DNA of 64,000 nt from a virus (IMGVR_UViG_3300020045_007300:1-64000); one strand, 5' to 3'. Counted from the first letter of the stretch, positions 3,090 through 55,056 are shown. A program made the numbers and translations. Notes: generated by a model from the letters alone, not told the origin.

Positions 3090-3208
3090 AATAAAAAAAG
3101 CCAGACTTTCTAGCGCGTTCGAGTGGGTAAAGAAATTGACCCCGCGCATAAAATCTAGCTTCATTTAATTTCTTTTTCTGTGACTCGAATCACAAAACTA
3201 TTATACCA
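3090..3208 (-). promoter_or_regulatory. Promoter (TGGTATAAT) plus two-hairpin leader with complementary loops and U-tract
   Basis: On the minus strand the hairpin-1 loop TTCGAGT is complementary to ACTCGAA in a terminator-like hairpin 2. Confidence 0.6.
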
Positions 3209-3283
3209 CCAATCACAATAAAACACTGTATAATTAGCCAATAACCCGTGTCGTGAGACATACTATCCCTTGAAGGAATACCA

Positions 3284-3733
3284 ATGGCAGACTTCCGCGC
3301 TCCAAAAGAAAACATTAGCTTCGACAGAGGCAAAGACATCGTATTTACCAGATGGTATCTTGATGATGCTATGGGCGCAGTCAATCTAACAGGCTGGAAA
3401 GCCCGAATGAAAGCCAAGTTAGATATTGACGATGTATTACCTATCACTGGCTGGGATTTTACTACTGAAACTACAGGATTAACTATTTTTACCCAAGCCA
3501 GTGAAACATTCACTTTATTAGCAGGTAGTGTTGTCAATGGCGTTACCTTAATAGTCGATACTGTTTACACGGTCACAAATCCATACGGCGTTAAAGTCCA
3601 CGTTCCAGCCTCCATAACCGCCGTTAAATCATTTGACAGTGCAGTCTATGACATTGAAATAGAAGACCCCGCAGGGCGCGTCTATCCGTTCAGAAAAGGC
3701 ACGTTAAAAGCATCTAAAGAGGTAACTGACTAA
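3284..3733 (+). CDS. Tail/fibre-attachment structural protein (BppU-N-like)
   Basis: Motifs VNLTGWKARM and AVYDIEIEDPAGRV..KG; directly upstream of the fibre gene. Confidence 0.6.
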   Translation: MADFRAPKENISFDRGKDIVFTRWYLDDAMGAVNLTGWKARMKAKLDIDDVLPITGWDFTTETTGLTIFTQASETFTLLAGSVVNGVTLIVDTVYTVTNPYGVKVHVPASITAVKSFDSAVYDIEIEDPAGRVYPFRKGTLKASKEVTD

Positions 3734-6700
3734 TGGCTATCATCATAGGAACAGACCCACAAATAGTCATTGCCAGCAACGATAAACCTGTTTTTGTTCA
3801 CACAGGCGGAGCGCAAGGCGCACAGGGTATTCAAGGCGTTAAGGGTGACAAGGGCGATAAAGGAGACTCTGGAGATACTGGGAATTTTACTGGTTTGGCT
3901 GGGTTTACTAATGCAAACGGTTTTACGGGTAATGTCACAAACAATAACTTGTCTTTAACTTTGCAGAATGCCAATGCCACTCAAGACGGTCAACTAACCG
4001 CGTCATCATTTAATGCGTTTTCAGGTGCGGTATCGAATGTAACTGAATTACAAAACCAGACAGCAACACTATCTAGCAATTTGAACGCTACTAACGTGAT
4101 GTTGATTGAAACGACCAACAACACAACATCTTTAGCGACTACTAAGCTGAATGTCACTGATGCTTTAGTGCTTGGCAGTACAAATTTAACCGCGTACCGA
4201 GGTGACTTAGGCGTTGCGACTACGGGCAATGTTACTGCACTGCAAAATCTTACAACAACCTTATCAGGCGACGCGAATACAACTAATAGCATCCTGAGCG
4301 GTGCAACATCAAACATAACCACGTTGCAAGGCAATGTTTCATCGTTAAGCAACCATACCGCAAATACATCAAACCCTCACGGCGTTACCAAAGCACAAAT
4401 TGGCTTATCTAACGTAACCGATGTTGCACCGCTAGAATTACCAATAAGCAATGCTACACAGACCGCGTTAAATGACAAACAAGGCACGTTAATATCTGGC
4501 ACTAACATTAAGACCATCAATGGTAATTCTGTCCTTGGTAGTGGTGACATGATTATTACTGGCGGTGGTAATATCAGCGGAATAGCAGGGTTTACGGACG
4601 GTAACGGGTTTACAGGTAACGTGACAAGCAATTATCTGTCATTGATATTGCAAAATGCCAACGCCACGCAATCAGGGCAGGTTACGTCAGGTAAATACAC
4701 CGACTGGGAAAGCAAAGGAACAAGCAATTTAACGCTTGGTAGTAATGGAACAACTGCGCTTAAAGGTAATGCGACCACGGCTGATGTTGCCGCTTCTGCC
4801 GACAAAAACTATGTGACCGATGCAAGCCTAGCGATACTTAATCAGACTAGTGGTACAAATACGGGCGACCAAGACCTAAGTGGTTTAGTTACAAAATCAA
4901 CTACGATTAATGGCGTTAATCTGTCATCAAATATCACGCTAACCACTGCCAATATCACGGCATCAACGGATAAAAATTACATCACCGATGCAAAGTTGAC
5001 TGTTTTAAACCAGACTAGCAACACTAACACTGGTGATGAAACAACGGCGACTATTAAGTCAAAACTTGGTATCACTACCTTATCTGGAAGCAATACAGGC
5101 GACCAGGATTTAAGCACGTTAGCGTTGAAATCAACAACTATCAACGGCGTTAATTTATCCAGCAATATCACACTGACGACGGCTAATGTAAGTGTATCTA
5201 CTGACAAAAATTATGTTACGGACGCAAAGCTAATCGTTATCAATGCAACCAGTGGCACGAACACAGGTGACCAAAATTTAAGCGGGTATGTGCAAAGTAC
5301 ACGGACGATTAACAATGCAGATCTTTCTGCTAACATTACACTAACTACCGCTAACATATCGACATCAACTAACAAACAATATGTTACTGATGCTAATTTA
5401 GCTGTTATCAATGTCACTAGCGGAACGAATACGGGTGACCAAACCATAACTTTAAGTGGTGATATATCTGGCTCAGGCACATCTAGCATCACCGCTACAC
5501 TAGCAACTGTAAATAATAACGCTGGTGTTTTTGGTAATGCCACGATAGTACCTATTATTACGGTGAATGGCAAAGGCATAGTTACCAACGTAACGAACGT
5601 AACTATTGCCAATGGCAGCGGTACAGTTACCAATGTAACCGCTACTGCCCCAGTTGTATCAAGTGGGGGGACAAGCCCAGATATAAGCATGGCAGCGGCT
5701 ACATCGTCAGTTAATGGCTACATGACCAGCACTTACGCGGGGAAACTGGACAGTATTGCAGCCAATAGTAACGTGACGTATGTACAAGGTAACGGCACGG
5801 TTAATGGCTTGACGCTATCTGGCAACGTAACAAGTGGTGGTAATTTAACTCTTGGCGGTACGTTATCATCGGTAAATTTAAGCACTCAAACTACTGGAAC
5901 TTTACCTGTAGCAAATGGTGGAACAGGTGTTACTGCGTCTACAGGAAGTGGAAACACTGTTTTATCGACAAGCCCAAATTTTACCACACCTATTTTAGGA
6001 ACTCCGCAAAGTGGCAACTTAACCAGTTGCACAGGCTATCCAATTTCAGGTGCAGTGACAGCAAATACTACAGGCGTAACCACTCTAACAGCAAATGGCG
6101 TTACATCGGCAAATCTTTTAGCGTGGGTATCAGATGAGACTGGCACTGGTAGCAATGTTTTTGCAAACAACTGTACTTTAAACACACCAAACATCACAAC
6201 ACCAAGTTTCGCCAATTTAACCAGCGCAATCGGGTTACCTTTGACTACAGGGGTAACAGGTGTTTTACCTATTGCAAACGGCGGTACGGGTGAATCAGTA
6301 GTATCAGGCTGGGTAGCGTTAGGTGTGTGTACTTATGAAACTGCCGATAGCCCGACGTTTCAATTTTCAATCGCAGCCGATGTTACTGGGTTTATTGCGG
6401 TTGGTAACAGAATAAAACTAACTCAAACTACAGCAAAGTATTTTATCGTGACGGCGGTCGGTTCATACACAGCAAGTAAAACAATTATCACTGTTTACGG
6501 TGGTACAGATTACACGCTTGCTAATGCGGCAATTACACTGCCTTATTTTTCAGTTGTAAAATCCCCGTTTGGCTTTCCACTTAGTCCTGCAAAATGGACA
6601 GTCACTGTCACTGATGCAACGCTTAGAACACAGGCAACACCGACGGCTAATACTTGGTATAACATCGGAACAACAGCGTCACAGATAAGCGTTCCAATTG

Positions 6701-7011
6701 GCGTGTGGTATCTTGGTTATTCTGTAATTTCTTATATTTCATCGGGGCTAGTTAATTCTAGTATCGAGGTGACGTTATCGACAGGAAATAATACGGAAAC
6801 TAATACTGCGCTATCAGATTATTATTATCATGAAAGTAGCAGTACGACACAGATTCATGTAGAGAAAACATCAGCACAGGATATTATTACCTTGGCATCA
6901 AAAACCACATATTATTTAAACGCTAGAACGCTGCTATCGGCGATGGGAAGCATTAATTATGCAAATGATAAAGTACCTTTATTTATAAAAGCAGAGTGCG
7001 CATTGTTATGA
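3733..7011 (+). CDS. Long tail fibre protein
   Basis: N-terminal collagen-like G-X-Y stretch; NPHGVTKAQIGL and GTNIKTING fibre motifs; four DKNYVTDA..SGTNTGDQ repeats; LPVANGGTG repeats. Confidence 0.85.
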   Translation: MAIIIGTDPQIVIASNDKPVFVHTGGAQGAQGIQGVKGDKGDKGDSGDTGNFTGLAGFTNANGFTGNVTNNNLSLTLQNANATQDGQLTASSFNAFSGAVSNVTELQNQTATLSSNLNATNVMLIETTNNTTSLATTKLNVTDALVLGSTNLTAYRGDLGVATTGNVTALQNLTTTLSGDANTTNSILSGATSNITTLQGNVSSLSNHTANTSNPHGVTKAQIGLSNVTDVAPLELPISNATQTALNDKQGTLISGTNIKTINGNSVLGSGDMIITGGGNISGIAGFTDGNGFTGNVTSNYLSLILQNANATQSGQVTSGKYTDWESKGTSNLTLGSNGTTALKGNATTADVAASADKNYVTDASLAILNQTSGTNTGDQDLSGLVTKSTTINGVNLSSNITLTTANITASTDKNYITDAKLTVLNQTSNTNTGDETTATIKSKLGITTLSGSNTGDQDLSTLALKSTTINGVNLSSNITLTTANVSVSTDKNYVTDAKLIVINATSGTNTGDQNLSGYVQSTRTINNADLSANITLTTANISTSTNKQYVTDANLAVINVTSGTNTGDQTITLSGDISGSGTSSITATLATVNNNAGVFGNATIVPIITVNGKGIVTNVTNVTIANGSGTVTNVTATAPVVSSGGTSPDISMAAATSSVNGYMTSTYAGKLDSIAANSNVTYVQGNGTVNGLTLSGNVTSGGNLTLGGTLSSVNLSTQTTGTLPVANGGTGVTASTGSGNTVLSTSPNFTTPILGTPQSGNLTSCTGYPISGAVTANTTGVTTLTANGVTSANLLAWVSDETGTGSNVFANNCTLNTPNITTPSFANLTSAIGLPLTTGVTGVLPIANGGTGESVVSGWVALGVCTYETADSPTFQFSIAADVTGFIAVGNRIKLTQTTAKYFIVTAVGSYTASKTIITVYGGTDYTLANAAITLPYFSVVKSPFGFPLSPAKWTVTVTDATLRTQATPTANTWYNIGTTASQISVPIGVWYLGYSVISYISSGLVNSSIEVTLSTGNNTETNTALSDYYYHESSSTTQIHVEKTSAQDIITLASKTTYYLNARTLLSAMGSINYANDKVPLFIKAECALL

Positions 7012-7125
7012 GCATAACCATATCAGAATGTTATTTTTACTAAAATACTTTTCCACACATCACTAAAAAGGATGTGTGGCGTATTGCGTTGGGGTTATTA
7101 TTACCGCTTAGTCTTGGATAGGCGG

Positions 7126-7566
7126 TTATTTCAGCATTGATTTAGCTTTTTGGTAACACAGGTAAATTGAATGTTTTGATTTCCAGTCGTCATAATAATG
7201 CTTTATTTCTTTATTATGATAAGGTCTCTCAAATCCACACCCCTCAAATATATAAAACTTAACAAATTTGATATATTGTCGTAATAACATAGCGCAAATA
7301 TCCCGCGCTTCTTTGCTACCTTTGCGTGGTGTGCGGATTGTTTTTATCTTGCATCTAGTAAAATATACAATGTCTGTTTGTGAATCTTTGCTATAATTAT
7401 TACCATAATTGGTATCATAATAACCTCTTTCGTTGCTACCCCATTTTGTGAGAGATGCAAGGGCGACAATGATATATTTATTATATTCATCGAATTCAAT
7501 AATAGCACCAACACCATTATTGAGAGTGACGACTAAATCACCAACTGCAAACGGTCGATTAGCCAT
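7126..7566 (-). CDS. Hypothetical phage protein
   Basis: ORF with RBS in a minus-strand small-gene cluster. Confidence 0.6.
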   Translation of the reverse strand: MANRPFAVGDLVVTLNNGVGAIIEFDEYNKYIIVALASLTKWGSNERGYYDTNYGNNYSKDSQTDIVYFTRCKIKTIRTPRKGSKEARDICAMLLRQYIKFVKFYIFEGCGFERPYHNKEIKHYYDDWKSKHSIYLCYQKAKSMLK

Positions 7567-8068
7567 TTTTACCCCCTTGTTTACCAAGCAAGTAGCAGCG
7601 TAGGACCGCTTCGTTGATTGTTTTACCTGTTGCTACATAAAAAATATCATCAATCACAATCTCAGCTTCCCATAAATCAGGTGCGCAGGGCGTAACACTT
7701 ATTTTCTCGCGTTCCATGATTTCTAATAGCTGTTGTCCGTTATTATTTGGGTTAAATCTGCATCCATTTACTTTTGTTCTAACTTTATTCCAATCTGCAA
7801 TTTTACAGCCAAATGCAGTAATTTTAGCTTTATGCTTCATTGCAATAGCCACGGAACAATCCAGCTCATCACCTCTCAAATTCATTATTTCATCGTTACA
7901 TTTTACGGCCTGTTTTTCTTTTACTAATGCCTGAGCAAAACTCATTGTGTAGTTCCCACAAAACATACTTACACCGCCATGTAGTGCATATCCGATACTA
8001 AGAAATTCATTAACTTTTTTTTCAACTGCAAATCTGTCAACACCTTGTACTATTTTATACTCAATCAT
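7559..8068 (-). CDS. DUF1737-like N-terminus fused to NinX/DUF2591-like domain
   Basis: YKIV..VNEFLSIGYALHGG..FAQAL, then ELDCSVAIA..IMEREKISV..AVLRCYL. Confidence 0.6.
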   Translation of the reverse strand: MIEYKIVQGVDRFAVEKKVNEFLSIGYALHGGVSMFCGNYTMSFAQALVKEKQAVKCNDEIMNLRGDELDCSVAIAMKHKAKITAFGCKIADWNKVRTKVNGCRFNPNNNGQQLLEIMEREKISVTPCAPDLWEAEIVIDDIFYVATGKTINEAVLRCYLLGKQGGKNG

Positions 8069-8175
8069 TTTGCACCGCCTTTATATCAAATAAAATAAAC
8101 ATGATAATAAAAGCATCAATCCCACCAAAAAAGAAAGTGTAATTGACACGATACGCACTAATAAAAATCTTAATA

Positions 8176-8715
8176 TCATTTTAACCGCCTTTGGTATTTC
8201 ATTCGTAAATCGCACAAACAAATATTATCTGATGCTCCGTTTAGACTACGATACATCAATTCATTATTTAAAATAAAATGATTACTACAGAATTTTAACG
8301 CTAATAAAACCCACTTATTACCGTTAAACCATTCTACAACATCACCCGCTTTTGCCCGATCAAGGCAGAATGGCAGATAGGCTGAGGCTTTACGTTTAAC
8401 TAATGAGCGACCATCGGTTAAAGCACACTCGACAGTAAAGTTGCAGTTAAAAGAAAAATTAAATTTCAATACCCATTGTGTGTCAATGTCCCACATTAAA
8501 TAAGCATCATCACCATAGACTTTAACATCGTGCGCAAATAATTCGGGCAGTGGTTTTAAATGAGTGTCTTGCAAGTCATAATCGCTAAAGTCGCTATTAT
8601 TTTGCAGCTGACACTGGGTGTCAGAAAAATGCGGAGCGTACCGCCGTGTAAACCGCTCATGCGCCAATTCGCCAAACTCATCAATCGCTTGCTGTACTAT
8701 CTGCTCAATACTCAT
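8176..8715 (-). CDS. Hypothetical phage protein
   Basis: ORF with overlapping start/stop coupling to its neighbour. Confidence 0.6.
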   Translation of the reverse strand: MSIEQIVQQAIDEFGELAHERFTRRYAPHFSDTQCQLQNNSDFSDYDLQDTHLKPLPELFAHDVKVYGDDAYLMWDIDTQWVLKFNFSFNCNFTVECALTDGRSLVKRKASAYLPFCLDRAKAGDVVEWFNGNKWVLLALKFCSNHFILNNELMYRSLNGASDNICLCDLRMKYQRRLK

Positions 8716-9041
8716 TTGTCAGCCTTTGGCAGTGGTAGCCATTTAATATAATTTTCGCGTTCAAAACTTGCTAAAAGCATTTGATTTAAAATAACACCAT
8801 CGGCTTCCATTACTAAAATGGCCTTTCTAAGCGGCGCACTATCCATATCCTGCCAAGGCGCAAAAATCCACCATTCAGCGGCTGTTAGTGGTACGTCTTT
8901 GTTAAACCTTTGACCGCTGCCGATAAACGGCATACCTTCATGTGCAGCGTCATATCTAGTTACTAATGCAATAAAGTTTCCATTGCATTTACACAACACC
9001 CCGCTAGCGGGAATGTTTTCGTGCCATTTTTTCATGCCCAT
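8712..9041 (-). CDS. Hypothetical phage protein (DUF551-like C-terminus)
   Basis: WQDMDSAP...KWLPLPK motif. Confidence 0.6.
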   Translation of the reverse strand: MGMKKWHENIPASGVLCKCNGNFIALVTRYDAAHEGMPFIGSGQRFNKDVPLTAAEWWIFAPWQDMDSAPLRKAILVMEADGVILNQMLLASFERENYIKWLPLPKADK

Positions 9042-9215
9042 AAATCCTCAATCGCCAGACTTTCATCGGGCGGTGTTGTTAAAATGATGTTTGATTGCCG
9101 ACAGCATATAATTGTGTTTTTAATTCAATTATATCCTTTTTGATTTCAATAATGTGCAGTGCCAGAATTATTATCGACACCGCTTGAATGAATGCTATTA
9201 GCTTTTGGTATGTAC

Positions 9216-9899
9216 TCATTCTGACACTTGCGCATTGACTGCTTGCAGCACGGATAAATGTTGATTGGCGGCTTGTTCGGTTAGATGAATGCTACCGCAT
9301 TCTGTTCTATTGTAATCTTCTATATGACCGTTCCATGTGTCAAAAAATACAGCCTTAGTGGACGACGCAGCAACCCAATATCTTTTTCCGTTTTCCAACG
9401 GCTCACGGCACGGCTCAGGATATTCCAGCACGTCGCCATTTTCTAGCGTTACTTTGCAGGTGCGATGGCGCAGTCGGTAATTATATTTTTCACTCCATTC
9501 TTGGCTTCTGCAAGTTATCCAATTATCAACCCATTTGGTGTCTTTCCATTGGTACTCCCAACGCAATTTATCCGCATTACTACACCCATGCCACTTAATG
9601 ATGCTTTCGCGGTGTGGGTGTACTCTATGCTCAATTTGTGGCAAGAATGGCGCATTAAACATCCTGTCTAGTGTCTCCCAACCGTTTGGGCTTTTGAATT
9701 GATACAGTTGCTCATAAAAATCAGGATAATCAATTTTGTCCTGCTCACACTGCGCAATAAGTGCTGAATGCGGGTTTGGTTGCTGTTGCCCTGCTTTCCA
9801 AGCGGCATAAGCTATTTCTTTCTGTATCGACCAATCAAAACTTTTTTGATTTTTATTCCACCATTGTTCAAAATCTTTATCTCCCATCACTTTCTCCAA
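9216..9899 (-). CDS. Hypothetical phage protein
   Basis: HPH and YPEPCREPL..YWV..GSIHLTEQAA motifs common in phage accessory genes. Confidence 0.65.
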   Translation of the reverse strand: MEKVMGDKDFEQWWNKNQKSFDWSIQKEIAYAAWKAGQQQPNPHSALIAQCEQDKIDYPDFYEQLYQFKSPNGWETLDRMFNAPFLPQIEHRVHPHRESIIKWHGCSNADKLRWEYQWKDTKWVDNWITCRSQEWSEKYNYRLRHRTCKVTLENGDVLEYPEPCREPLENGKRYWVAASSTKAVFFDTWNGHIEDYNRTECGSIHLTEQAANQHLSVLQAVNAQVSE

Positions 9900-10083
9900 T
9901 TTCTTTAAAAATCACGTCGCGGTCGTTAGTGCATGACCGCACAAATACACCGCTTTCTTTGCGCCATTCAGTAGGACATCTTTGCTCTGTGTATAAAAAA
10001 TAACAACTTATACATGAGCAAATGCTATCACCTACAACATCATCCACCTTTAGCACAACATCATCGGGTAATTTATCGCTCAT
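9877..10083 (-). CDS. Small Cys-rich hypothetical protein
   Basis: SCISCYF..C..C..RDVIFKE. Confidence 0.55.
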   Translation of the reverse strand: MSDKLPDDVVLKVDDVVGDSICSCISCYFLYTEQRCPTEWRKESGVFVRSCTNDRDVIFKEIGESDGR

Positions 10084-10585: not shown

Positions 10586-10603
10586 GTCATACATTTGTAT
10601 GAC
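10586..10603. promoter_or_regulatory. Palindromic operator between divergent promoters
   Basis: GTCATACA-TT-TGTATGAC is a perfect inverted repeat next to a minus-strand TTGACA and upstream of 10643. Confidence 0.55.
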
Positions 10604-11579: not shown

Positions 11580-11585
11580 GGCTTG

Positions 11586-14066: not shown

Positions 14067-14951
14067 CTATACTGGTGTTAATGCTTCTTTTTTAGCGTCT
14101 TTAGCCGCTGTCAAAGCGGTTTTATCGACATTACCAAGGTCTTGCCACGCTTGTTTAAATACATTTTCAAGCGTGACCATATTGGTACACGCATTAATCA
14201 GGATGATTTTTTTAGCAAGTAAATCAGCTATGCGTTGTTGCTCTATTATGTCAAAATCAACACCACTTTCTAGCCAAAATTTCAACCTTTCACCTGTTGC
14301 CTTGGTGATAACTTCTGGCTCTGAAAATACACCTGTTCTATCCTTGCTTGCGGTAGCCCAATGACCCTCATGGACTAAATCAAGTACAGCGGTAAACTCA
14401 TACTCAATCCCCTCGCGCTGTTCGTACTTCATGCCTAATTTGACGACAACTTTTTTACCACTTGCCCCCTCTTGTTGCGCCGTTTCTGTTTTTGTTCTGC
14501 ACGTTGCGATAACATGGCATTTGCTTTGAATCATTGCGTCCAAAAACAGTCGATGACGCGCATTTGTTACGTTCCACGCACTCCATGTATTGCCGCGAAA
14601 TTTAGCATCTGCAATGACACTATTTAACTCAAGACAGCCGCCAGAACCTACCCACTCATGGGTTATAGAATCCACTAAAATAGTGTCATACCCTGATTTT
14701 TCAGCTAACTTGATAGCATCAATGTATTTTTCAGGCGTGTACGGCGGCGACAATTCCAGAACATCAAAATCTGGACACCATGCCATACCCTCATAAAGTG
14801 ACGCACTGCCGTTTTCGCTATCAATAACGGCAATCTTGCCACCAATCCCTGCCGCCATTAACAGCGCACTCATTGTTTTACCGCCACCGCTGGGCGAAGC
14901 AATTAATACCCGTGCTTTTGCCTGTTTTCTCTGCGCTTTTTTAAATTCCAT
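14067..14951 (-). CDS. Sak4-like AAA_24 ATPase (single-strand annealing)
   Basis: Walker A SPSGGGKT, IAVIDSE, VDSITHEW, QREGIEYEF. Confidence 0.88.
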   Translation of the reverse strand: MEFKKAQRKQAKARVLIASPSGGGKTMSALLMAAGIGGKIAVIDSENGSASLYEGMAWCPDFDVLELSPPYTPEKYIDAIKLAEKSGYDTILVDSITHEWVGSGGCLELNSVIADAKFRGNTWSAWNVTNARHRLFLDAMIQSKCHVIATCRTKTETAQQEGASGKKVVVKLGMKYEQREGIEYEFTAVLDLVHEGHWATASKDRTGVFSEPEVITKATGERLKFWLESGVDFDIIEQQRIADLLAKKIILINACTNMVTLENVFKQAWQDLGNVDKTALTAAKDAKKEALTPV

Positions 14952-14967: not shown

Positions 14968-15084
14968 AACAAAAAACCCAGATATTACAGGACGAGTGCA
15001 ATAGAGCTGGGTTTGTCGCAAATCAATTAGATTTTCTTTAATGCCTCGTCCGCAATACAGAAAATCCGAGTTAATTATATCACC
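14968..15084 (-). promoter_or_regulatory. Promoter (TGATATAAT) plus two-hairpin leader with complementary loops and U-tract
   Basis: Transcript loop 1 GGACGAG is complementary to loop 2 CTCGTCC; hairpin 2 AAACCCAG..CTGGGTTTTTT. Confidence 0.65.
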
Positions 15085-15439
15085 AATTAAGCATCATCCC
15101 GCATTCTTTTTGCTCAGTCTCATACTGAAAGCCGTAACCGTTAATATAATGTTCATTGTCAAATCGTTGGCTAAATCCAAGTTTGCAGTGCTTAACGCCA
15201 AGTATAAAGAAGTAAGCCGACAAAAATAAAGACATTCTTTTTACAGCTTCTATTTCCATTGGAATATCGCTACCTACCGATTTACTGAATGAAGCCCTGT
15301 ATGGTGGTCTAAACGGCTCTAATTGCTTATGCCATATAGCCGCATTAGCTCTGATTTCAGGATTAGCAACATTAACCAATTTACCTTTGGCTTCCATTGC
15401 CGCTTTGAATTTTTCAACATCAAACATCACGCGCACCAC
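15080..15439 (-). CDS. Hypothetical protein
   Basis: ORF in the early leftward operon. Confidence 0.55.
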   Translation of the reverse strand: MVRVMFDVEKFKAAMEAKGKLVNVANPEIRANAAIWHKQLEPFRPPYRASFSKSVGSDIPMEIEAVKRMSLFLSAYFFILGVKHCKLGFSQRFDNEHYINGYGFQYETEQKECGMMLNW

Positions 15440-16787: not shown

Positions 16788-17360
16788 AAAAACCTCTTTG
16801 TTAATGTAATAACACACTGTTATTACTAATAAACAGCTTATTTCAAAGTTGTTTATTAGTAAAGCCGCTTGCCCTGCGGAAATACTAATTTTAACCTTCC
16901 ACCTATTCAGTCAGTTAAGTTAGCATCCTGAAATTAAACGGTTCAGTGTCCGTATTAACGCCCAGCCATAAGGATGAGACATACTGTCGTTAATGGTCTA
17001 TGTTAGCTGATATGGAGCAGCGGCATCCTCAGACTGACCAGCAAACTTTTCCGCGTTAGCCAAGCGTTTGAATAAAAAATGCACCGTGTCTACGGTGCGA
17101 ATGGTTTACCCTTTAGTGGTAAAAAACACAAACAACTGGATAACCTAAATTACCCAGCAGTTTGTATTCTTTAAATATATTGTTAAATATAATTTAACAA
17201 TATATTTCATTTGCAGTTGTTCTGCTTACTATTCCTTGTTATCCCGTCATTCCTGCTTATCACAGGGCGGTTCAGACATCTTCGGCGCGTGTCGTGCGGT
17301 AAATATACTGAAATGTTTTACGGGCTTCCTGTCGGTGTTTCCCTCTTCCATTGGAAAAGA

Positions 17361-20353: not shown

Positions 20354-20496
20354 TTGCACAAAAGTAAAATCATGATAAACTTACCTTAGTTTTGAAGTTT
20401 TCTGTGGTGGAAAAAGTTCAAAACTGAAAATAAGTTTTATTCTAAAGAACCCGCCTTGTAGTTGTCCACCACCGACTGCTTGAGTGGGTTTTTTTG
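20354..20496 (+). promoter_or_regulatory. Promoter plus two-hairpin leader with complementary loops and U-tract
   Basis: Loop 1 GTGGTGGA (20404-20411) is complementary to loop 2 TCCACCAC (20465-20472); hairpin 2 ends GGGTTTTTTT. Confidence 0.65.
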
Positions 20497-20515
20497 TGAC
20501 CACAGGAAAAATACA

Positions 20516-21235
20516 ATGAATACCACTGAATTAGAAATATTCAAATCACAAACAATGTCATCAATTGAAATCGCTAAATTGACTGGCAAAAATCATGACC
20601 ATGTATTGCGAGATATTCGCGTACAATTATTCACTGGTCTTTATAATATTGAATTTGATAATCCAAAAATGGTTTATCCATTAATTCAAGGACTTACAGT
20701 TATTACGGATAATCACACAAAACGTACAAAAGAAATCCTACTTGACCACGAGCATACCTTAACACTCATGACAGGTTATGACGTTAAGGCGCGTCATAAA
20801 ATAAATAAGCGTTGGATTGAACTCGAAGCTGCACAGCCAAAAGTACCGACAAACTACCTTGAAGCACTTGTTGCCTTGGTACAATCAGAAACCGAAAAAC
20901 AATCATTACAGAATAAAATTGAAACCGAAAAGCCAAAAGTGGAATTTGCGGAAACCATCCGTAACACCGATGGTAAAGTATCAGTTGGTGATTTTGCAAA
21001 AGTTATCGGAACTAGTCAAAACAGATTGTTTGAGCGATTGCGTAATGACGGTTTTTTAATGGCAAACAACCGCCCTTATCAACATTCCATTGACCGTGAA
21101 CTTCTGGTATCCATTGAGCAAAAACCGCACGTTTACAATAACGGTAATCCCATCCAAGTTTTAAGACGCTTATTACTGGCAAAGGACAGGTTTATTTTGA
21201 AAAACGTTACAGAAAAGATGTTTTGTAATAACTGA
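20516..21235 (+). CDS. Rha-family regulator with ANT/KilAC C-terminus; frameshift near 21146
   Basis: MSSIEIAKLTGKNHDHVLRDIR; KPKVEFAE; the conserved ITGKGQVYF lies in another frame. Confidence 0.85.
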   Translation: MNTTELEIFKSQTMSSIEIAKLTGKNHDHVLRDIRVQLFTGLYNIEFDNPKMVYPLIQGLTVITDNHTKRTKEILLDHEHTLTLMTGYDVKARHKINKRWIELEAAQPKVPTNYLEALVALVQSETEKQSLQNKIETEKPKVEFAETIRNTDGKVSVGDFAKVIGTSQNRLFERLRNDGFLMANNRPYQHSIDRELLVSIEQKPHVYNNGNPIQVLRRLLLAKDRFILKNVTEKMFCNN

Positions 21236-38898: not shown

Positions 38899-39768
38899 AT
38901 GCCTACTAACGTAGCAAGAACTGGTAACAACTTACCTAACGGCAATTTTGCACCCGCTATCTGGTCGCAAAAATTGAATGCCAAGTATTACGCTCAAACT
39001 TGCCTGTTTGACATCACCAACTCTAAATGGGAAGGCGAGATTAAAGGTCAAGGCTCGCAAGTTGAGATTCGTAACCGTCCGACTGTTGCCATCACTGATT
39101 ATTCAGTGAATCAAGACATTCAGTATCAAGACATTATTGATGAAAAAATCACTTTGTTAATCGATAAAGCGAAATCTTTTTCATTCAAAGTTGATGATAT
39201 TGACGCAGCTCAGTCAAACATTGCCATTATCGACGAATTGACCCAAGACAGCGCGTATCAGATGAAAATCGCTATTGATACACAGGTCTTAGGTTCGATT
39301 TACGCCGATGCTTCCAACGCTTTAGCTTCGATTACCATCGACAAAACCAATGTTCTTGATTGGATTATCGACGCGGAGGTGAAGATGGAAGAAAACAACC
39401 TGCCAAACGACAACCGCTGGATTATCATTCCACCTAAAGTCGCTGGTTACATCCAAAAATCTGATTTAAAAGTGGCTTCATTAACTGGTGATTCTAAATC
39501 TATCATCCGTAGCGGCATGGATAACGGTCGTTTAGGTATGATTGGTGGTATCACTGTGTATGTCAGCAACAACCTATCTAAATCAGGGACTACTTATCAG
39601 TGTATCGCTGGTCATAAATCAGCCGTCACTTATGCGTCACAAATCGTAAAGGTTGAGAGCTTACGCTTACAAACCAAATTTGGTGATGCAGTTCGGGGTC
39701 TCAATTGCTTCGGATATAAAACAGTAATCCCCAGCGGGCTCGTAAGTATGCCTGTAGTAGTGGTATAA
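38899..39768 (+). CDS. Major capsid protein (P22-coat-like)
   Basis: NFAPAIWSQK, WEGEIKGQG, FKVDDID, FGDAVRGL..G.K. Confidence 0.92.
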   Translation: MPTNVARTGNNLPNGNFAPAIWSQKLNAKYYAQTCLFDITNSKWEGEIKGQGSQVEIRNRPTVAITDYSVNQDIQYQDIIDEKITLLIDKAKSFSFKVDDIDAAQSNIAIIDELTQDSAYQMKIAIDTQVLGSIYADASNALASITIDKTNVLDWIIDAEVKMEENNLPNDNRWIIIPPKVAGYIQKSDLKVASLTGDSKSIIRSGMDNGRLGMIGGITVYVSNNLSKSGTTYQCIAGHKSAVTYASQIVKVESLRLQTKFGDAVRGLNCFGYKTVIPSGLVSMPVVVV

Positions 39769-39860
39769 TACGGTTAATGGTGGATAGGGCATCGAACCCG
39801 AAAGACGGAAACCTACCGTTTGCCACCAAACTTTTTAGGTTGTTTTGAATAGGTATCAAA

Positions 39861-47892: not shown

Positions 47893-49623
47893 ATGTCAGA
47901 TTATTCGGTTAGAGCCGATCAACAGTTTGCATTCGCAGAAAAGTACACCACAAAAGGCACTGATACTTTTAATGATGGCTTATCAAAGGCTAATTTATTT
48001 GCCCAAGGTAACGTCGTTATTAAAGAGCGTGACGTTGGCATTCATACTCCTGCAAAGTTAAACCTTGAAACAGTTGAAGCGATTACCGCATTCAATATGC
48101 CAGCGGCTTACACATTAAGCACCACGGGTCTATTCCAAGCGAATCCGCCCGAAGGTACGGCAGGTGTATTCACCACGCCAGCACCCGAAACCGATTTTAA
48201 CAAGATTGATTCCGTATTAAATAGCATTCCTGTTCCCGTGCTGGAAACGGTGGCAATGCCTACCATGCACGATATTAATATCAACCCTGTGCCTACGGTA
48301 AACCTTCCTGTATTCGACCCGAAAACCGTTGTCGAAGTCATTGATAAGCCTGTTAATCAGCAGCCTGCTTTAATATCTCAGTACGAACGTATGCGCCCAG
48401 ATGTTAAAAAGTGGGTTGATGATGGTGTTGATAGCTGGATAGCCAAGTACGCACCCAATTACAAAGAGCTGTTGGCAGCCGCACAAAACAAGCTCATGCA
48501 GGTTATGGCTAATGGCAAGATGCTACGCGAGGATTACCAGACTTATTTGCAAACTCAGTCACGCACCGCTATAGAAGACACCGCTACTGCCGCTATTAGT
48601 GGAATTATCAACGACCGCAGACGCGCAGGTGCAAACTCATTGCCACAGTCTATGACTGCGGGTATTGCCAAAGCCAAACAAGCGAAGTACAACAACCAAG
48701 CCATTGCTAACACCACCATTGAGATAAAAATTATCGAAATGGAAACTGAAAACATTAAGTGGGCAGTAACCGAAGCGTTAAGACTTCAAGGTTCGCTTAT
48801 GCAAGCCTTTTTAGGCTATGCGGGTGTGATGGTACAGGTTAATGAAGCTGCGTGGTCACAGGGTAAAATTTACTGTGATATGTACGCCCAGTACTATGAA
48901 ATGTTACTCAAGCGTTTGGGATTGCAATTGGACGCACTCAAAACCGAAGCGGCAATTTATGATACCCAGCTAAAAGCGGCGTTATCCGTATTAGACGGTT
49001 ATCGGCTTGAACTGGACGCTAAAAAAACACTGGTGGCGATTGATGGTCAACGCCTAGATTTTGTCGGCAAACAGATACAAGTTCAACTTGCAAAGGTTCA
49101 AATCTACACCGCGTTATTGGGTAGTGTTGAAACCCGCGCGAACGTGGAAATGTCAAAGGTCAAACTGTTTGCCGAAGAAGTCAATGCCTACAACTCACAA
49201 TTGCAGGGTGACAAAATCCGCAATGACATATTCTTAGCTGGACAGTCAGGCGATATGAACAAGCTGAAAGCTAAAGAAATTGAGCTGGAAGCATGGACTA
49301 AAACTACTGACGCACTGATTAAAGCCAAGCAGATTGATATTGCCACTAAATCATTTGGTATTGAAAAGAACAAGATGCTCATGTCTAAGTTTGGCTATGA
49401 CCTTGACTCACTGAAAACAGAATATGAGCGTGATCGTTTATTAATCGCACAAGACCAGTTTAACGCCAAAATTATGACTGACGTGATGACCAATCAGGTG
49501 CAATCAATCAATCAACATTATATGCAATTGGGCAATCTATACGCCCACGCAGGGCAGACTTATAGCACTATCGGCGCATCCGCCATTAACGCAGCAACAT
49601 CATCAGTAACATTACAAGTTTAA
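47893..49623 (+). CDS. Virion/tail structural protein (Pro-rich N-terminus, coiled-coil C-terminus)
   Basis: Long ORF in the late region with a late-gene leader hairpin. Confidence 0.7.
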   Translation: MSDYSVRADQQFAFAEKYTTKGTDTFNDGLSKANLFAQGNVVIKERDVGIHTPAKLNLETVEAITAFNMPAAYTLSTTGLFQANPPEGTAGVFTTPAPETDFNKIDSVLNSIPVPVLETVAMPTMHDININPVPTVNLPVFDPKTVVEVIDKPVNQQPALISQYERMRPDVKKWVDDGVDSWIAKYAPNYKELLAAAQNKLMQVMANGKMLREDYQTYLQTQSRTAIEDTATAAISGIINDRRRAGANSLPQSMTAGIAKAKQAKYNNQAIANTTIEIKIIEMETENIKWAVTEALRLQGSLMQAFLGYAGVMVQVNEAAWSQGKIYCDMYAQYYEMLLKRLGLQLDALKTEAAIYDTQLKAALSVLDGYRLELDAKKTLVAIDGQRLDFVGKQIQVQLAKVQIYTALLGSVETRANVEMSKVKLFAEEVNAYNSQLQGDKIRNDIFLAGQSGDMNKLKAKEIELEAWTKTTDALIKAKQIDIATKSFGIEKNKMLMSKFGYDLDSLKTEYERDRLLIAQDQFNAKIMTDVMTNQVQSINQHYMQLGNLYAHAGQTYSTIGASAINAATSSVTLQV

Positions 49624-49638
49624 CAATAGGTATTAAAA

Positions 49639-49884
49639 ATGAACAAATTATTACTAGCACTCAAAGTATTACAATCAGGCGAATGCCTAGCAAACGCCGC
49701 CACATGGAAAAACAGACAGTTAAGAACTAATGCTTTACTGATTGTCGTCGGCGCAATACCACAGCTATTTGACGTGGATTTATCACCGTCTGATGTGAGC
49801 TTAATCTCTTATGGCATAGCTGCCGTCGGTGGACTGTTCAATAGTTATTTGACCGTAGCAACCAGCGAGAAAGTCGGGTTCTAA
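49639..49884 (+). CDS. Small two-TM protein (holin-like)
   Basis: ANAATWKN..YLTVATSEKVG. Confidence 0.55.
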   Translation: MNKLLLALKVLQSGECLANAATWKNRQLRTNALLIVVGAIPQLFDVDLSPSDVSLISYGIAAVGGLFNSYLTVATSEKVGF

Positions 49885-51536
49885 TGTTACCCCCTAAGCG
49901 TCAAAACCTATTCCCACCATTCGCCACTACGTTTGACGGCGACCCTGCTGAGTGTTCCAAGCACTTAGGCAGGGCAAGGGGTATGCTTAGCTTAATGTGC
50001 CGCAGTATGCCGCCTGTCAAGTCACGCACAGAAACTACGGCTGATGGTGTTGAGATACGGGTTACTACCAATCCTCATCATGTTTATATTAAGTCTGGTA
50101 GTACGTTATTTTGCACGTCATTTAATGAAGGCGATTTAGGTACGCAGATATATAAAAAACCATACCCTCCAGTAACAAGAGATGGTCTTATTTTAGATAG
50201 TGACAATCCCAATAAACTTGTCCTACCATCACCGACCTACAGCGCACGAGCTAATTATTGGGCAAATACTAGAGAAAATGCCACAGTTAGCTGGGATTAT
50301 GTTGAGTATTTAGATATATTTTACCCTGTTGGTCACGCCAGCAGACTAAGAAAATACGGAAAAATAGCGGTAAATGGTATCGAAACTGACTTGCTATGGG
50401 GTAAGTTTTTAGAACCGTTGGTGTGCGCATTAATCGATAAAGATGCTGATGATTTGCCTGTTCAGCGGATTGTGATTATCTATGTTGATAGACTTAATTA
50501 TGCGGGGACGGGCAATAATAGATATATTGCGGTGTACGATTATCAGATAGACACAAGCGTTTCTTTAACGGAGATTTCAAAAACTAATTTTAATGTGCTT
50601 GGCTACAGTACAAACACATTAATAGGATTTTTTGGTGATGCTAAACGGCTGGCTATATACAGCACTGTTGATAGGATTTATTACCCATCAGATTACCCAC
50701 TGGGAATTACAAAGCACGTTCCGACAATAAATGTTATTGATTTTAATAGCGCGTTTGTTATGGTCGTAAATGACGAAATTATTTACGAAGAATCGCCAGA
50801 GGTAAGCCTTGGCTATAACTATGTATCAAGCGGCGAAACGACAACATTAGTCATCCCGTTTGAGCATATATCCAGCGCATTTATAGATGTAAGAGGCGAG
50901 TATATTTCTTTTTCTGCATCTAAGACTATTATAAAAATAACAATATTGGCTGCGGAAGTATCGTGGGAAGGCGGCATCTATCGTCCATATAATAGTGATT
51001 CATCGACAGTGGAACATCACCTAGTATCGTGGTCAAAAAAAGACACTTTACAGAGATTACTTTTAAAAGCCACGTCAAGCAGTCACTCTGGAACAACCAC
51101 AGAGTCAGGCGGTCGGTTATTAAAGACGGGTATTTATTTAGAAAAATACATTTACTGTTCCCTGTTCTTAAAAAAGCAAAATGAATGTATTTATGCTGAA
51201 CATACGCAGTCAGGGACTAGCTCATCGGTAGAAGGTACAAAGCCAGCTGGTGATTGGGGAATAATCTCTAGCGAGTCAACGCAACGCAATCAAGTAGAAA
51301 TAATATCAAAAAATCTTGGCGAATTATACACAAGTGACTTAACGCTTGGCGGTGATGGTTGGGTGGGGGATTATTCGTACACTAAAAGTACGCTGGTAGT
51401 ATCAATATACGCATTTGATTATGATACAGAGGGCAATGAAACCGATAAATCATTTACGCTTGTTTCAAATATGAAAAGTAAGTACAAAATAATACCTACG
51501 GAAGCTAAAAACATATCACTGACTAAATTTCCGTAA
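49884..51536 (+). CDS. Tail-associated protein
   Basis: Long beta-rich ORF in the structural region. Confidence 0.55.
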   Translation: MLPPKRQNLFPPFATTFDGDPAECSKHLGRARGMLSLMCRSMPPVKSRTETTADGVEIRVTTNPHHVYIKSGSTLFCTSFNEGDLGTQIYKKPYPPVTRDGLILDSDNPNKLVLPSPTYSARANYWANTRENATVSWDYVEYLDIFYPVGHASRLRKYGKIAVNGIETDLLWGKFLEPLVCALIDKDADDLPVQRIVIIYVDRLNYAGTGNNRYIAVYDYQIDTSVSLTEISKTNFNVLGYSTNTLIGFFGDAKRLAIYSTVDRIYYPSDYPLGITKHVPTINVIDFNSAFVMVVNDEIIYEESPEVSLGYNYVSSGETTTLVIPFEHISSAFIDVRGEYISFSASKTIIKITILAAEVSWEGGIYRPYNSDSSTVEHHLVSWSKKDTLQRLLLKATSSSHSGTTTESGGRLLKTGIYLEKYIYCSLFLKKQNECIYAEHTQSGTSSSVEGTKPAGDWGIISSESTQRNQVEIISKNLGELYTSDLTLGGDGWVGDYSYTKSTLVVSIYAFDYDTEGNETDKSFTLVSNMKSKYKIIPTEAKNISLTKFP

Positions 51537-51625
51537 ATACAAAACTGTATTTTAGCTTTTATGTGTAGCACACCCAAAGGCATCACCAACTCTCAGTAAC
51601 ACGCTTACCCAAAAAGGTATAAAAA

Positions 51626-52678
51626 ATGGCAACTAAAATAGTCTTTAGAGGACAACAAACAACAACCACTGCGTCAGGCACTAATTTAACGCTTATCGCA
51701 GCAGCGACTGGGTACGAGAACTTTAACCCTACTTGTGGAAACGGTGATTCTTTTTATGGCATACTTGAATTACAGGATAAGCAATGGGAAGCAGGGCTGT
51801 TTACCATCGTCGGCTTATATCCAACAGTAGTAAGTAGACCAACAACGCCTATCGCGTCAAGTACGACTTTTACGATGACGGCAGGCACACACACTTTAAA
51901 ATGTTGTGATATGCAGGGTAGCGCATTCCCTGATCCGAACACGAGTAATTTTGATTTTCATAATGCCTATATATTAAACGCATACTTTAATAAAGCTAAA
52001 GGGCAATACGGAGATATAATTCGTAATGCAAATTCTGCTAGTGGTGTTTTAAATATGAATTACGGGGGGTTTTCGACAATAACCCTTAATGCAGATGTCA
52101 GCTACTCAAAAGAAACCACATTGCCAGACGCTACGGTAGCATTGCCTAATAGCGGCGAGGCTCAAACATTAATTATAGAGGTTATTCAAGATAACGCAGG
52201 TGGACATACATTTACGCTAAATGCACCATTTGCTCCGTATACTGACGGAGATTCAGCAACCGTAGGAGTAAATATAGACCTTACCCCATATAGCAAAACG
52301 TACATAGTTCTGGTAAACAACGTGTACACTGTTATTAAAAAGCCGCATTTAGTTGTTAATAGCATCTTTGATGTAGACTATGATGTCTCTTTTCCAAAAG
52401 GGTTTGAAAACAGCATTGTACACCGAACCAGTGCAGACACTACAGCGCGAACGTGGACTATCCCTGCAAACTCAGCAGAACCCTTTCGTACAGGTACAAA
52501 AATGAGACTGTTAAACATGGGGGCATCTGGCAATGTTTCAGTACCAATTACTACTGACACGCTTAAATGGCTACCAACGGGCGGCACAGGAACGCGCACT
52601 ATCGCACCAAATGGTTATCTTGATATTGAAAAGATAACTGATACCATGTGGATTTGTTCAGGTGTTGGCGTGACTTAA
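51626..52678 (+). CDS. Tail fibre/receptor-binding-like protein
   Basis: QTTTTASGT N-terminus; ARTWTIPANS..TGTRTIAPNG..WICSGVGVT C-terminus. Confidence 0.75.
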   Translation: MATKIVFRGQQTTTTASGTNLTLIAAATGYENFNPTCGNGDSFYGILELQDKQWEAGLFTIVGLYPTVVSRPTTPIASSTTFTMTAGTHTLKCCDMQGSAFPDPNTSNFDFHNAYILNAYFNKAKGQYGDIIRNANSASGVLNMNYGGFSTITLNADVSYSKETTLPDATVALPNSGEAQTLIIEVIQDNAGGHTFTLNAPFAPYTDGDSATVGVNIDLTPYSKTYIVLVNNVYTVIKKPHLVVNSIFDVDYDVSFPKGFENSIVHRTSADTTARTWTIPANSAEPFRTGTKMRLLNMGASGNVSVPITTDTLKWLPTGGTGTRTIAPNGYLDIEKITDTMWICSGVGVT

Positions 52679-52730
52679 TGCGGTAATGTGAATTAAAGGG
52701 GCAACATTGCACCTTTGTTTTCATCGATTT

Positions 52731-54065
52731 AGCTCCGAGATACCCCTTCCTTTAGGTGGGGGAGGAAAGGAGTGCTTTTGATTTTCGCTGCACATAGTTA
52801 ATTCCTAAAATATCTGTTGTGTTATCACATTTTTTAAATTAAAATGTGAGTTATGAAAAATAGAGCTTACAAATACCGCTTTTACCCAACGCCCGAACAA
52901 GAAACCTTGCTTGCTCAGACGTTTGGCTGTGTGCGTAAGGTCTACAACACCGTTTTGCGTTGGCGTACAGATATGTATTACCAAAGCAAGGAAAAAATAG
53001 GGTATATTCAAGCCAGTGCTAAATTGACTGAGCTTAAAAAACTTCCTGAACTCTCTTTCCTGAATGACGTTTCTTGTGTCCCATTGCAACAATGCTTGAG
53101 GCATCAACAAACCGCGTTTAAAAACTTCTTTGAAGGTCGCGCTAACTATCCGACTTTCAAAAAGAAAAATAGAAAGCAATCCGCTGAATTTACCAAAAGC
53201 GCATTTAAGCACATTGACGGTAAACTTTATATTGCCAAGTGCAAAGAACCGCTTAACATTCACTGGACAAAAAAGCGTGAAAGTTTGCCTTGCGAACCCA
53301 GTACGATAACTATTTCCAAAGACTGTGCAGGACGCTATTTTGTTTCGTGCCTGTGCGAGTTTGAAAACCAAATCCTGCCAAAAACTGATAAAACCATCGG
53401 CATTGACGTAGGAATAAAGCATTTGTTTGTGACTAGCAACGGTCTCAAAATCGACAATCCCCGCCATACTGCTAACTTCGCGGTTCGATTGGCTAAAGCG
53501 CAACGCAGTCTGAGTAAGAAAAAACTCGGCTCTGCGAATCGCGCTAAAGCTAAATTGAGCGTTGCGCGACTTCATGCAAAAATCTCTGATTGCCGATTGG
53601 ACAACTTACACAAGTTGACCCGTGAACTGATTAACGATAACCAAGTGGTTTGTGTTGAATCGTTGCGCGTAAAAAACATGATTAAAAACCCTAAGTTGAG
53701 CAAACATATTGCGGATGCAAGCTGGGGTAAGTTTGTCCAGCAATTGGAATACAAAGCCGATTGGGCAGGTCGAACACTGGCAAAAATAGACCAGTTTTTT
53801 CCTAGCTCAAAACGCTGCTCTTGTTGTGGGTATACCTTGCCCCGCTTATCTTTAAGCGTCCGCAACTGGGCGTGTCCAGAATGCTCAACAGAACACGACC
53901 GCGATATTAACGCGGCTATAAACATCAAAACCGCAGGGCTTGCGGGGTTAGCCTTTGGAGAGACTGTAAGTCTTGTGTAGCTAGTCTGCATAAGCTGTTC
54001 TCGTTGAATTAGGAAGTCTTAGTAGTGATGCTAAGAATCCCCTACTCTTTAGGGGGGTATGTCAA
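52731..54065 (+). mobile_element. tnpB-only IS200/IS605-family element (IS1341-like)
   Basis: Left-end hairpin CCCCTTCCTTTAGGTGGGGG; right end GAATCCCC..TTTAGGGGG..GTCAA ending in TCAA; no tnpA. The left boundary is approximate. Confidence 0.85.
52853..53980 (+). CDS. tnpB: RNA-guided endonuclease TnpB
   Basis: AYKYRFYPT HTH; RuvC GIDVG, VESL and DRDINAA; zinc finger CSCC/CPEC. Confidence 0.96.
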   Translation: MKNRAYKYRFYPTPEQETLLAQTFGCVRKVYNTVLRWRTDMYYQSKEKIGYIQASAKLTELKKLPELSFLNDVSCVPLQQCLRHQQTAFKNFFEGRANYPTFKKKNRKQSAEFTKSAFKHIDGKLYIAKCKEPLNIHWTKKRESLPCEPSTITISKDCAGRYFVSCLCEFENQILPKTDKTIGIDVGIKHLFVTSNGLKIDNPRHTANFAVRLAKAQRSLSKKKLGSANRAKAKLSVARLHAKISDCRLDNLHKLTRELINDNQVVCVESLRVKNMIKNPKLSKHIADASWGKFVQQLEYKADWAGRTLAKIDQFFPSSKRCSCCGYTLPRLSLSVRNWACPECSTEHDRDINAAINIKTAGLAGLAFGETVSLV

Positions 54066-54073
54066 ATTAAATC

Positions 54074-54330
54074 TTGACAATAGTTATTTGGTGGCATAAT
54101 AACAGTGGGCTTCAAAACTCAAATACCAAGCGTTACCCGCACACGAAAGTTACGCGGATATTTCACCTTTCTGTTTTCGCAAACCTATCCTTGTGGTAGA
54201 CTTGCACTGCGATTGGGAGTGTCACGAATATATTGAATAAGTGCGCCACGCTTGGTAGTGGTTTTGAAACTCCTAATTGTACCCTTCGGGGCGTTTCAGT
54301 TCTTAGAATCACCAAGGATTCATCATGTCA
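54074..54330 (+). ncRNA. C4/ash-like antisense immunity element (P1 C4 / P4 CI type), downstream gene apparently lost
   Basis: TTGACA..CATAAT promoter. TTCAAAAC and ACCAAGCG are complemented by CGCTTGGT and GTTTTGAA (about 54250-54268). A second ACCAAG overlaps the RBS of a 10-codon ORF. Confidence 0.6.
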
Positions 54331-54380
54331 CAAGTAAATGTTGTGGATATGTGCTGAATGTAAAACAACTTTAAGTTAAA

Positions 54381-54596
54381 ATGACAATCCAACTAAAACG
54401 CCATCACCGAGCAAGGCTTAAGCGCAATAGAAAATATCACTTTGGGCGCGATTTAAGCGATAAACACTTAAGTACGGCTATCAATACACCTAGACCGTGT
54501 TCATGCGTCATGTGTGGCAATCCTAGGCGTTATTTTGGCAATAAAACGCTTGCTGAGTTGCGTAATGCCGAATTATATAACGAACAGGAAAATTAA
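54381..54596 (+). CDS. Conserved small basic Cys protein
   Basis: RHHRARLK..TPRPCSCVMCGNPRR. Confidence 0.7.
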   Translation: MTIQLKRHHRARLKRNRKYHFGRDLSDKHLSTAINTPRPCSCVMCGNPRRYFGNKTLAELRNAELYNEQEN

Positions 54597-54597
54597 A

Positions 54598-54828
54598 ATG
54601 AACGATTTGCTGTATGAAAAAGCAATGCAAGGAATGATACTACGGTCTTTCACCACTAAAGAAATAGTTGATTTTATGCGTAGCAAAGGATTTTACGCTG
54701 ACATTGATAAAAAATGCGGGTTTGGAAGGATTTTTATAACATTTCACCATGAAGATGCCTTGATAAAAGATGTTGTACTTACTGTGGATTGGTATCGTGG
54801 AGGTATGATGTTGAGTCGCTTAAATTAA
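54598..54828 (+). CDS. Hypothetical protein
   Basis: MNDLLYEK start with AGGA RBS. Confidence 0.5.
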   Translation: MNDLLYEKAMQGMILRSFTTKEIVDFMRSKGFYADIDKKCGFGRIFITFHHEDALIKDVVLTVDWYRGGMMLSRLN

Positions 54829-54855
54829 ATAATTCTTGAGCTTTACTAGAAATTC

Positions 54856-55056
54856 TGTATAATTGTTCATAGGGTTTTCAGTATTTGTCTTGGGAAAGGC
54901 GTAAATACTGAAAACCCCGCAATAAAACGAATGCTTTGCAGCCTTTCCCATCTGGTAAAGCATTCGGAACAATAAAACCGTTTTGTGACACCTCTAGCAA
55001 AACGGATAACCTTTAAGAACCCGCGTTTGCTATTTTAGTAAACGCGGGTTTTTTTT
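54856..55056 (+). promoter_or_regulatory. Promoter, kissing-loop hairpin pair, third hairpin and strong terminator
   Basis: TATAAT at 54858; loops TGGGAAAGGC and GCCTTTCCCA; terminator AACCCGCGTTT..AAACGCGGGTTTTTTTT. Confidence 0.7.

Follow-up and report, generated by a model that had tools for sequence, protein, structure and literature searches.

How does one phage genome come to carry several transcription units that open with a leader of the same layout, each with its own pair of complementary loop sequences? The question is raised by IMGVR_UViG_3300020045_007300:1-64000, the 64,000-nucleotide stretch of viral DNA analyzed here (the window), which opens a 94,892-bp IMG/VR record from an uncultured virus, classed as linear and 89% complete, with a GC content of ~40%. 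A sequence-only reading of the window had described four leaders between positions 3,090 and 55,056, in which the loop of a first hairpin was said to be the exact reverse complement of the loop of a second hairpin, with different letters at each site. All four word pairs were found, exact in letters and coordinates, and the accompanying layout, a sigma-70-type promoter followed by a hairpin and a U-run, is present at four of four sites. The architecture extends further than had been claimed: there are at least seven copies (Table 1), three of which lie outside the window and came to light when -10 boxes were listed across the whole record. The order of -10 box, hairpin 1, linker, X'-bearing hairpin and U-run is common to seven of seven.

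What the seven units share is an upstream loop that addresses the tip or the interior of the terminator hairpin. The tip of the 5' hairpin (word X) pairs with an unpaired patch (word X') of or near the terminator hairpin; the letters vary, and compensatory changes keep the pairing. Judged from its sequence, the design is a genuine and so far uncatalogued RNA control element that heads at least seven transcription units.

Architecture of the leaders

The leaders are ~95-190 nt long. Minimum-energy folds give hairpin 1, a 10-25-nt linker and a second hairpin, and the folds of the four leaders in the window have z-scores of -4.1 to -9.4 against shuffles. The claim that one loop complements another in the strict sense holds for site 2, whose two loops measure 7 nt each in the minimum-energy fold, and for the second hairpin of site 3, and fails elsewhere. 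Part of the first word falls inside a weak apical stem at sites 1, 3 and 4, and the 10-mer words of site 4 sit in 15-16-nt loops. X' is placed in the terminator loop at sites 2 and 3, in a bulge of a branched terminator at sites 1, 5 and 7, and in a hairpin just before the terminator at sites 4 and 6, where a second loop pair, Z:Z', links to the terminator tip.

Sites 1, 5 and 7 are paralogs that can be aligned with one another; their joint covariance model gives 101-112 bits for each of them and <20 bits elsewhere. This branched type has a second conserved long-range pair, formed by the A-rich linker with the inner loop of the terminator and 95% paired over the three copies (CAGAAAT/ATTTCTG at site 7, AAAGAAATT/AATTTCTTT at site 1). 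Sites 4 and 6 are homologous across ~650 nt, including a stretch poor in open reading frames (ORFs), and their words at corresponding places differ, with TGGGAAAGGC (10 nt) at site 4 and TAGCGGGAC (9 nt) at site 6. The Z pairs of these two sites likewise stand at homologous positions with different letters (TAGCAAA/TTTGCTA at site 4, TTCAGCA/TGCTGAA at site 6).

Other candidates were rejected: one at 85285/85316 lies inside an ORF, the words of one at 17146/17190 sit in the stems of a perfect palindrome, and the unit at 59056-59205 has no loop complement (p = 0.29). In the latter (+ strand), a promoter (TGTATAAT) and leader are followed by a strong terminator with the next promoter directly behind it; it provides a negative example of the layout. 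The palindrome, 35 nt long and perfect (17172-17206), adjoins a strong hairpin with a U-run (17125-17168) between the leftward and rightward early blocks (- strand). Its 'loop' match, TAAATTA/TAATTTA, lies in stems and was not counted as a family member; the region 17125-17206 looks like an operator or control site.

Loop complementarity against chance

Complementary 7-mers between the tips of neighboring hairpins are common: genome-wide, 14-16 occur per strand where ~8 would be expected, so that one 7-mer alone proves little. For a 7-mer that the interior of a terminator has in common with any position upstream, p is ~0.2-0.3. The frequency of such 7-mers favors reading the pairs as chance. 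The related reading is a DNA-level feature, be it protein-bound inverted repeats or the remnant of an inverted duplication; at site 2, ~19 nt of hairpin 2 resemble the tip of hairpin 1 in reverse complement and suggest an origin by inverted duplication. The longest non-local complement, however, is X:X' in every leader. Under a structure-blind rule, by which the longest complement between the first 50 nt of the transcript and the rest up to the U-run was compared with shuffled controls, the promoter-proximal units give p = 0.004-0.15 per site (Fisher 7.5e-6). A structure-informed rule, with loops taken from the folds and defined post hoc, gives p = 1e-4 to 8e-3 (Fisher 6e-14). A combined shuffle p of at most 7.5e-6 and the compensatory changes among paralogs speak against chance, and words that differ at each site, with spacing from 40 to 62 nt, are incompatible with one DNA-binding protein. 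We regard chance or a DNA-level feature as hardly credible.

The X:X' helices of sites 1 and 7 differ by one central, compensatory exchange of A-U to C-G, and the helix of site 5 differs from these in three more columns, each on both sides. Over sites 1, 5 and 7, double changes with pairing kept thus affect four of the eight columns of the helix. The annotated structure of these three sites is 90% paired, against 76% in shuffled sequences and 42-52% when the partners are slid. Covariation from three sequences is suggestive and no statistical proof, yet it recurs independently in the pair of sites 4 and 6. The covariation within one genome that the sequence-only reading had noted is borne out by these compensatory changes between paralogous copies. 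The proposed orthogonality of the loop pairs also held in silico, with cognate duplexes of -8 to -19 kcal/mol and all cross pairs weaker. Across sites, the seven loop pairs share no more than five complementary letters, and the 8-10-nt words have no second occurrence in the genome. The compensatory changes indicate that the loop pairing is under selection.

Table 1. Leader features and adjoining genes (sites 5-7 in genome coordinates)
Site	Feature	Position	Strand	Basis or remark
1	Promoter, extended -10 TGGTATAAT	3200..3208	-	Sequence; no good -35, missed by a simple promoter scan
1	Hairpin 1, GTGA-TTCGAG-TCAC, 4 bp	3180..3193	-	Fold; putative RNA 5' end
1	Word X TTCGAGT / X' ACTCGAA	3189-3183 / 3124-3118	-	Exact complement
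1	Linker word Y AAAGAAATT	3167..3175	-	Complements inner-loop word Y' AATTTCTTT, 3137-3129
1	Branched terminator hairpin (64 nt) and U7	3091..3161	-	X' is a 7-nt bulge, not the apical loop
1	AntA-domain gene, downstream	2295..3077	-	Pfam PF08346, E = 1.4e-18
2	Promoter, extended -10 TGATATAAT	15074..15082	-	Adjoins stop codon of upstream ORF 15080-15439
2	Hairpin 1	15029..15067	-	Fold; 7-nt loop is X GGACGAG, 15051-15045
2	Terminator hairpin, then U6	14968..15013	-	7-nt loop is X' CTCGTCC, 14996-14990
2	AAA_24 (Sak4-like) ATPase gene	14067..14951	-	Pfam PF13479, E = 5.8e-22; 20 nt past the U-run
3	Promoter TTGCAC-16 nt-TGATAAACT	20354..20381	+	Sequence; missed by a simple promoter scan
3	Hairpin 1	20386..20427	+	X is GTGGTGGA, 20404-20411, partly in weak apical stem
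3	Terminator hairpin, then U7	20448..20496	+	8-nt loop is X' TCCACCAC, 20465-20472
3	Second possible target ACCACAG	20499..20505	+	Complements CTGTGGT in hairpin 1 tip; just 5' of Shine-Dalgarno
3	Rha-ANT gene, downstream	20516..21235	+	Pfam PF03374, PF09669
4	Promoter TTGAGC-16-TATAAT	54836..54863	+	10 of 12 positions match
4	Hairpin 1	54872..54917	+	X is TGGGAAAGGC, 54891-54900
4	Hairpin 2	54928..54966	+	X' is GCCTTTCCCA, 54941-54950, in 15-nt loop
4	Hairpin 3	54978..55005	+	Word Z TAGCAAA (54995-55001) complements TTTGCTA (55026-55032), upper terminator stem
4	Intrinsic terminator, 18 pairs, U8	55015..55058	+	~450 ORF-poor nt behind
5	Leader with X/X' GTCGTAG/CTACGAC	90467-90345	-	Upstream of second AntA gene
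6	Leader with X/X' TAGCGGGAC/GTCCCGCTA	73745-73590	-	Homologous to site 4
7	Leader with X/X' TTCGCGT/ACGCGAA	70640-70520	-	Upstream of 21-codon ORF

A candidate cis-acting attenuator

We give about an even chance to the reading that the leaders are one family of promoter-proximal RNAs that act in cis as transcription attenuators, with private loop pairing setting terminator closure. Host sigma-70 RNA polymerase would start ~7 nt past the extended -10 box, a position that at every site coincides with the foot of hairpin 1. The hairpin 1 tip X would then form 7-10 Watson-Crick pairs with the unpaired patch X', and this loop pairing would determine how well the terminator closes and hence the read-through. 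By a slight preference, we expect pairing to hinder the lower terminator stem and to give more read-through, much as in guanidine-IV RNA but ligand-free. Anatomy, recurrence, covariation and orthogonality can be read from the sequence; where transcription starts, whether the terminators act, which way the pairing shifts read-through and what modulates it are inferred. At sites 2 and 3 the pairing uses up the whole loops, and by our own rough estimate the 15-20-nt linker would need ~100 angstroms with both stems complete; competition between the kissing loop and the terminator stem is therefore plausible at these two sites.

The nearest mechanistic precedent is guanidine-IV (mepA motif), in which a kissing loop between the first and the terminator hairpins hinders the terminator stem and leads to read-through, the kissing loop and the stem competing via linker length (PMC11611296). 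Both designs have a hairpin and a terminator hairpin with complementary loops, as at sites 2 and 3. The loops of guanidine-IV are conserved and provide a ligand pocket, whereas here the letters vary per copy and no loop nucleotides are shared. The 7-10-bp Watson-Crick helix of the present leaders should also need no ligand; moreover, the genes concerned are phage genes, and there is no Rfam match.

Several points weigh against the cis attenuator. The covariation comes from three plus two paralogs in one genome, and a simple terminator scan detects two of the four terminators in the window. For the branched type, the geometry estimate gives no clash between pairing and terminator, which leaves the direction of the effect unsupported at sites 1, 5 and 7. 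A strong, ligand-free pairing that always formed would make the terminator pointless unless it were modulated, and no modulator was found.

The orthogonality of the loops raises the alternative, rather unlikely in our judgment, of address-coded autoregulation in trans. The short terminated RNA would accumulate and, through its exposed loops, kiss hairpin 1 or 2 on nascent transcripts from no locus but its own; termination would shift, and every unit would have a feedback timer to itself. In line with this, the energies of cognate and cross duplexes lie well apart, and sites 1 and 7 differ by one central compensatory pair of the kind that separates specificities in antisense systems. If the complete terminator excludes intramolecular pairing, as estimated for sites 2 and 3, the free RNA would expose both loops. 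Precedents are IsrK of Gifsy-1, whose short terminated isoform acts on its own read-through mRNA before an antirepressor gene, and P4 CI, a processed RNA with two target boxes in which seqB pairs with seqA/seqC (PMC4825925). Cis pairing, however, accounts for the covariation just as well, has a huge local-concentration advantage, is kinetically favored and would mask both loops of the free RNA. Compensated neutral drift in a cis helix would produce an equally 'orthogonal' set of words with no selection on orthogonality itself, the 8-10-nt words have no extra genomic targets, and there is no lysogeny machinery in need of immunity. Unlikely, too, is a self-addressed RNA timer in which cis loop pairing would permit read-through while the loops of the terminated RNA would block that pairing in trans, in the same unit only, such that each early or accessory cassette would silence itself, protein-free, after a private delay.

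Comparison with known RNA systems

None of the seven units matches any Rfam family; gathering-score hits in the window together with L004 and L005 comprise one tRNA only. A search of the whole window at E <= 5 gave nothing relevant, the C4 and IsrK/SeqA models included, and a literature search found no published description of such a leader design. The sequence-only reading had cited P1 C4, P4 CI and N15 RNAs as precedents. P4 CI and P1 c4, together with IsrK, are indeed the nearest phage analogs, but the mechanisms differ, as c4 blocks translation and CI is processed and has two targets.

As in P4 CI and IsrK/SeqA, where they govern termination or downstream gene expression, effector and target boxes lie on the same strand of one phage leader transcript. 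P4 CI is cut from a longer transcript and has two targets, whereas each X here has a single partner box, in or beside the terminator hairpin, and the RNA ends are apparently set by promoter and terminator. IsrK, in addition, remodels a ribosome-binding site. With the c4 RNAs of P1 and P7 and the N15 RNA, the leaders share hairpin loops with short private boxes before ant-type genes, where few changes give new specificity. P1 c4 acts at the ribosome-binding site and blocks translation (PMC12197685), and the anti-immunity RNA of N15 is processed, according to Ravin et al. (1999) as cited in PMC4488713. In the present leaders the partner box is in or beside the terminator hairpin in seven of seven, rather than at the ribosome-binding region; site 3 alone has an extra 7-nt match beside the Shine-Dalgarno sequence (Table 1), and this match, unique to it, may be due to chance. 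The c4 RNAs belong to temperate-phage immunity, whereas this phage has no lysogeny genes.

The unit of lambda PR', 6S RNA and tR' offers another likeness, with a strong promoter, a close intrinsic terminator, a short RNA and read-through-dependent genes. Here, too, an intrinsic terminator lies within ~200 nt of the promoter, ahead of genes. In the lambda late unit, protein Q loads at the promoter; lambda 6S RNA is not known to have complementary loops. The shared layout leads to the reading that a phage antitermination factor of the Q, N or put kind releases the terminators, with the kissing fold as a scaffold whose shape is recognized by the factor or by the polymerase; shape recognition would tolerate different loop letters. 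The Q-type Pfam families PF03589 and PF06530 are, however, absent from the record (89% complete), and the seven leaders have no common sequence box for a single factor. We consider such a factor very unlikely.

Downstream genes and read-through

The leaders precede two AntA genes, the AAA_24 (Sak4-like) ATPase gene, the Rha-ANT gene, a tiny ORF and two homologous ORF-poor regions of ~450 nt. The AAA_24 gene heads a block with SSB and dUTPase, which lies downstream of RdgC. In five of the seven units the start codon follows 10-25 nt past the U-run with no intervening promoter, so the downstream gene would be expressed only by read-through.

This proximity bears on the reading that the units are stand-alone small RNA genes, in which pairing would serve compaction, nuclease resistance or self-association like that of phi29 pRNA, with no role in termination. 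Each unit does have its own promoter, its own terminator and a 5'-terminal hairpin, a typical stabilizer; A-rich linkers precede the U-tail, and ~450 ORF-free nt rather than a gene stand behind sites 4 and 6. The 10-25-nt distance to a start codon that has no other promoter, however, argues that the terminator gates the gene in five of seven units, and X' is always in or beside the terminator hairpin, a place that a pure stability role does not need. In phi29 pRNA, two complementary loops covary among related phages, and their intermolecular pairing builds the packaging ring. That RNA differs from the present leaders in being a single copy per genome and not a leader, and no Rfam pRNA match was found here. 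Small RNA genes without a role in termination are, to our mind, a distinctly unlikely explanation.

The ORF-poor stretches behind sites 4 and 6 (55060-55520, + strand, and L004 ~9130-9590, - strand) are homologous, have the block CATGGGGCAGATT in common and gave no Rfam match. At the 5' coding end, the AntA paralogs share ~66 identical nt, or 23 residues (window 3010-3075, - strand; L005 ~14269-14334, - strand). The remaining protein is 31% identical, and the leaders directly upstream have diverged, a pattern that suggests gene conversion or a constrained RNA segment. A leader peptide at site 1 was considered and rejected. From the AUG at 3164 (- strand), an uninterrupted reading frame leads into AntA and would lengthen it by 29 codons through the terminator hairpin, but this AUG is not common to paralog 5, where an in-frame stop makes it probably fortuitous.

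Lifestyle, relatives and other leaders

A six-frame Pfam search of the record detected no integrase, no S24 (CI/LexA-type) repressor and no HTH_3 domain, and the phage therefore looks virulent. The statement in the sequence-only reading that no CI is visible accordingly stands, and for the same reason the immunity layer it had inferred is unlikely. Cultured phages are distant: the portal protein is at most 33% identical (tblastn), and the nearest Sak4 of a cultured phage is 64% identical (tblastn). Sak4 proteins 71-72% identical (P0002, P0003) occur on Logan and JGI contigs. A very close relative is present in the sample of L065 (IMGVR_UViG_3300020045_001564), as this 6.5-kb contig has a TerL fragment 97% identical to the TerL of the window; it spans no leader site.

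Searches for homologs of the leaders gave no usable hit among GenBank phages (megablast and blastn, and tblastn with Sak4 and portal). IMG/VR peptide-pattern scans with Sak4, Rha-ANT and TerL returned no leader homolog, TerL giving short off-site fragments. The type-A covariance model R1 (sites 1, 5 and 7) had no copy among 54 loci from an AntA alignment scan, a JGI metagenome scan yielded one GC-rich locus without a leader, and DNA pattern scans gave only chance matches. A terminator-based detector, which recovers three of five known sites, showed no enrichment over decoy in unrelated phage loci, a result that speaks neither for nor against the design in other phages. Ahead of AntA homologs in other IMG/VR phages, a hairpin loop complements a downstream box of the c4 kind (11 nt in L009, 9 nt in L016 and 10 nt in L047); as judged by the covariance model, these leaders are not homologous to those described here. 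Self-targeting leaders ahead of ant-type genes thus seem common in unrelated phages.

The record also contains two further leader types. One (39761-39860, + strand; genome 68195, + strand, and 74502, - strand) has an extended -10 followed by a three-way-junction, terminator-like fold, the second loop of which matches just-downstream sequences including the Shine-Dalgarno region; it resembles c4. The other (30381, 47839, 59216 and genome 74513 and 90482, all + strand) comprises structural-gene promoters followed by a small GNRA-type hairpin near the ribosome-binding site.

Implications

If termination is indeed gated by the pairing, this phage would run at least seven transcription units through one modular RNA device, and two compensating mutations would suffice to rewrite its specificity. 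Among the units are recombination genes, three AntA/Rha-type genes and two large non-coding regions. Such a device would be a relative of riboswitch expression platforms that does without protein and ligand, and it would offer synthetic biology a natural set of orthogonal parts; it could also explain gene timing in virulent phages without recognizable regulators.

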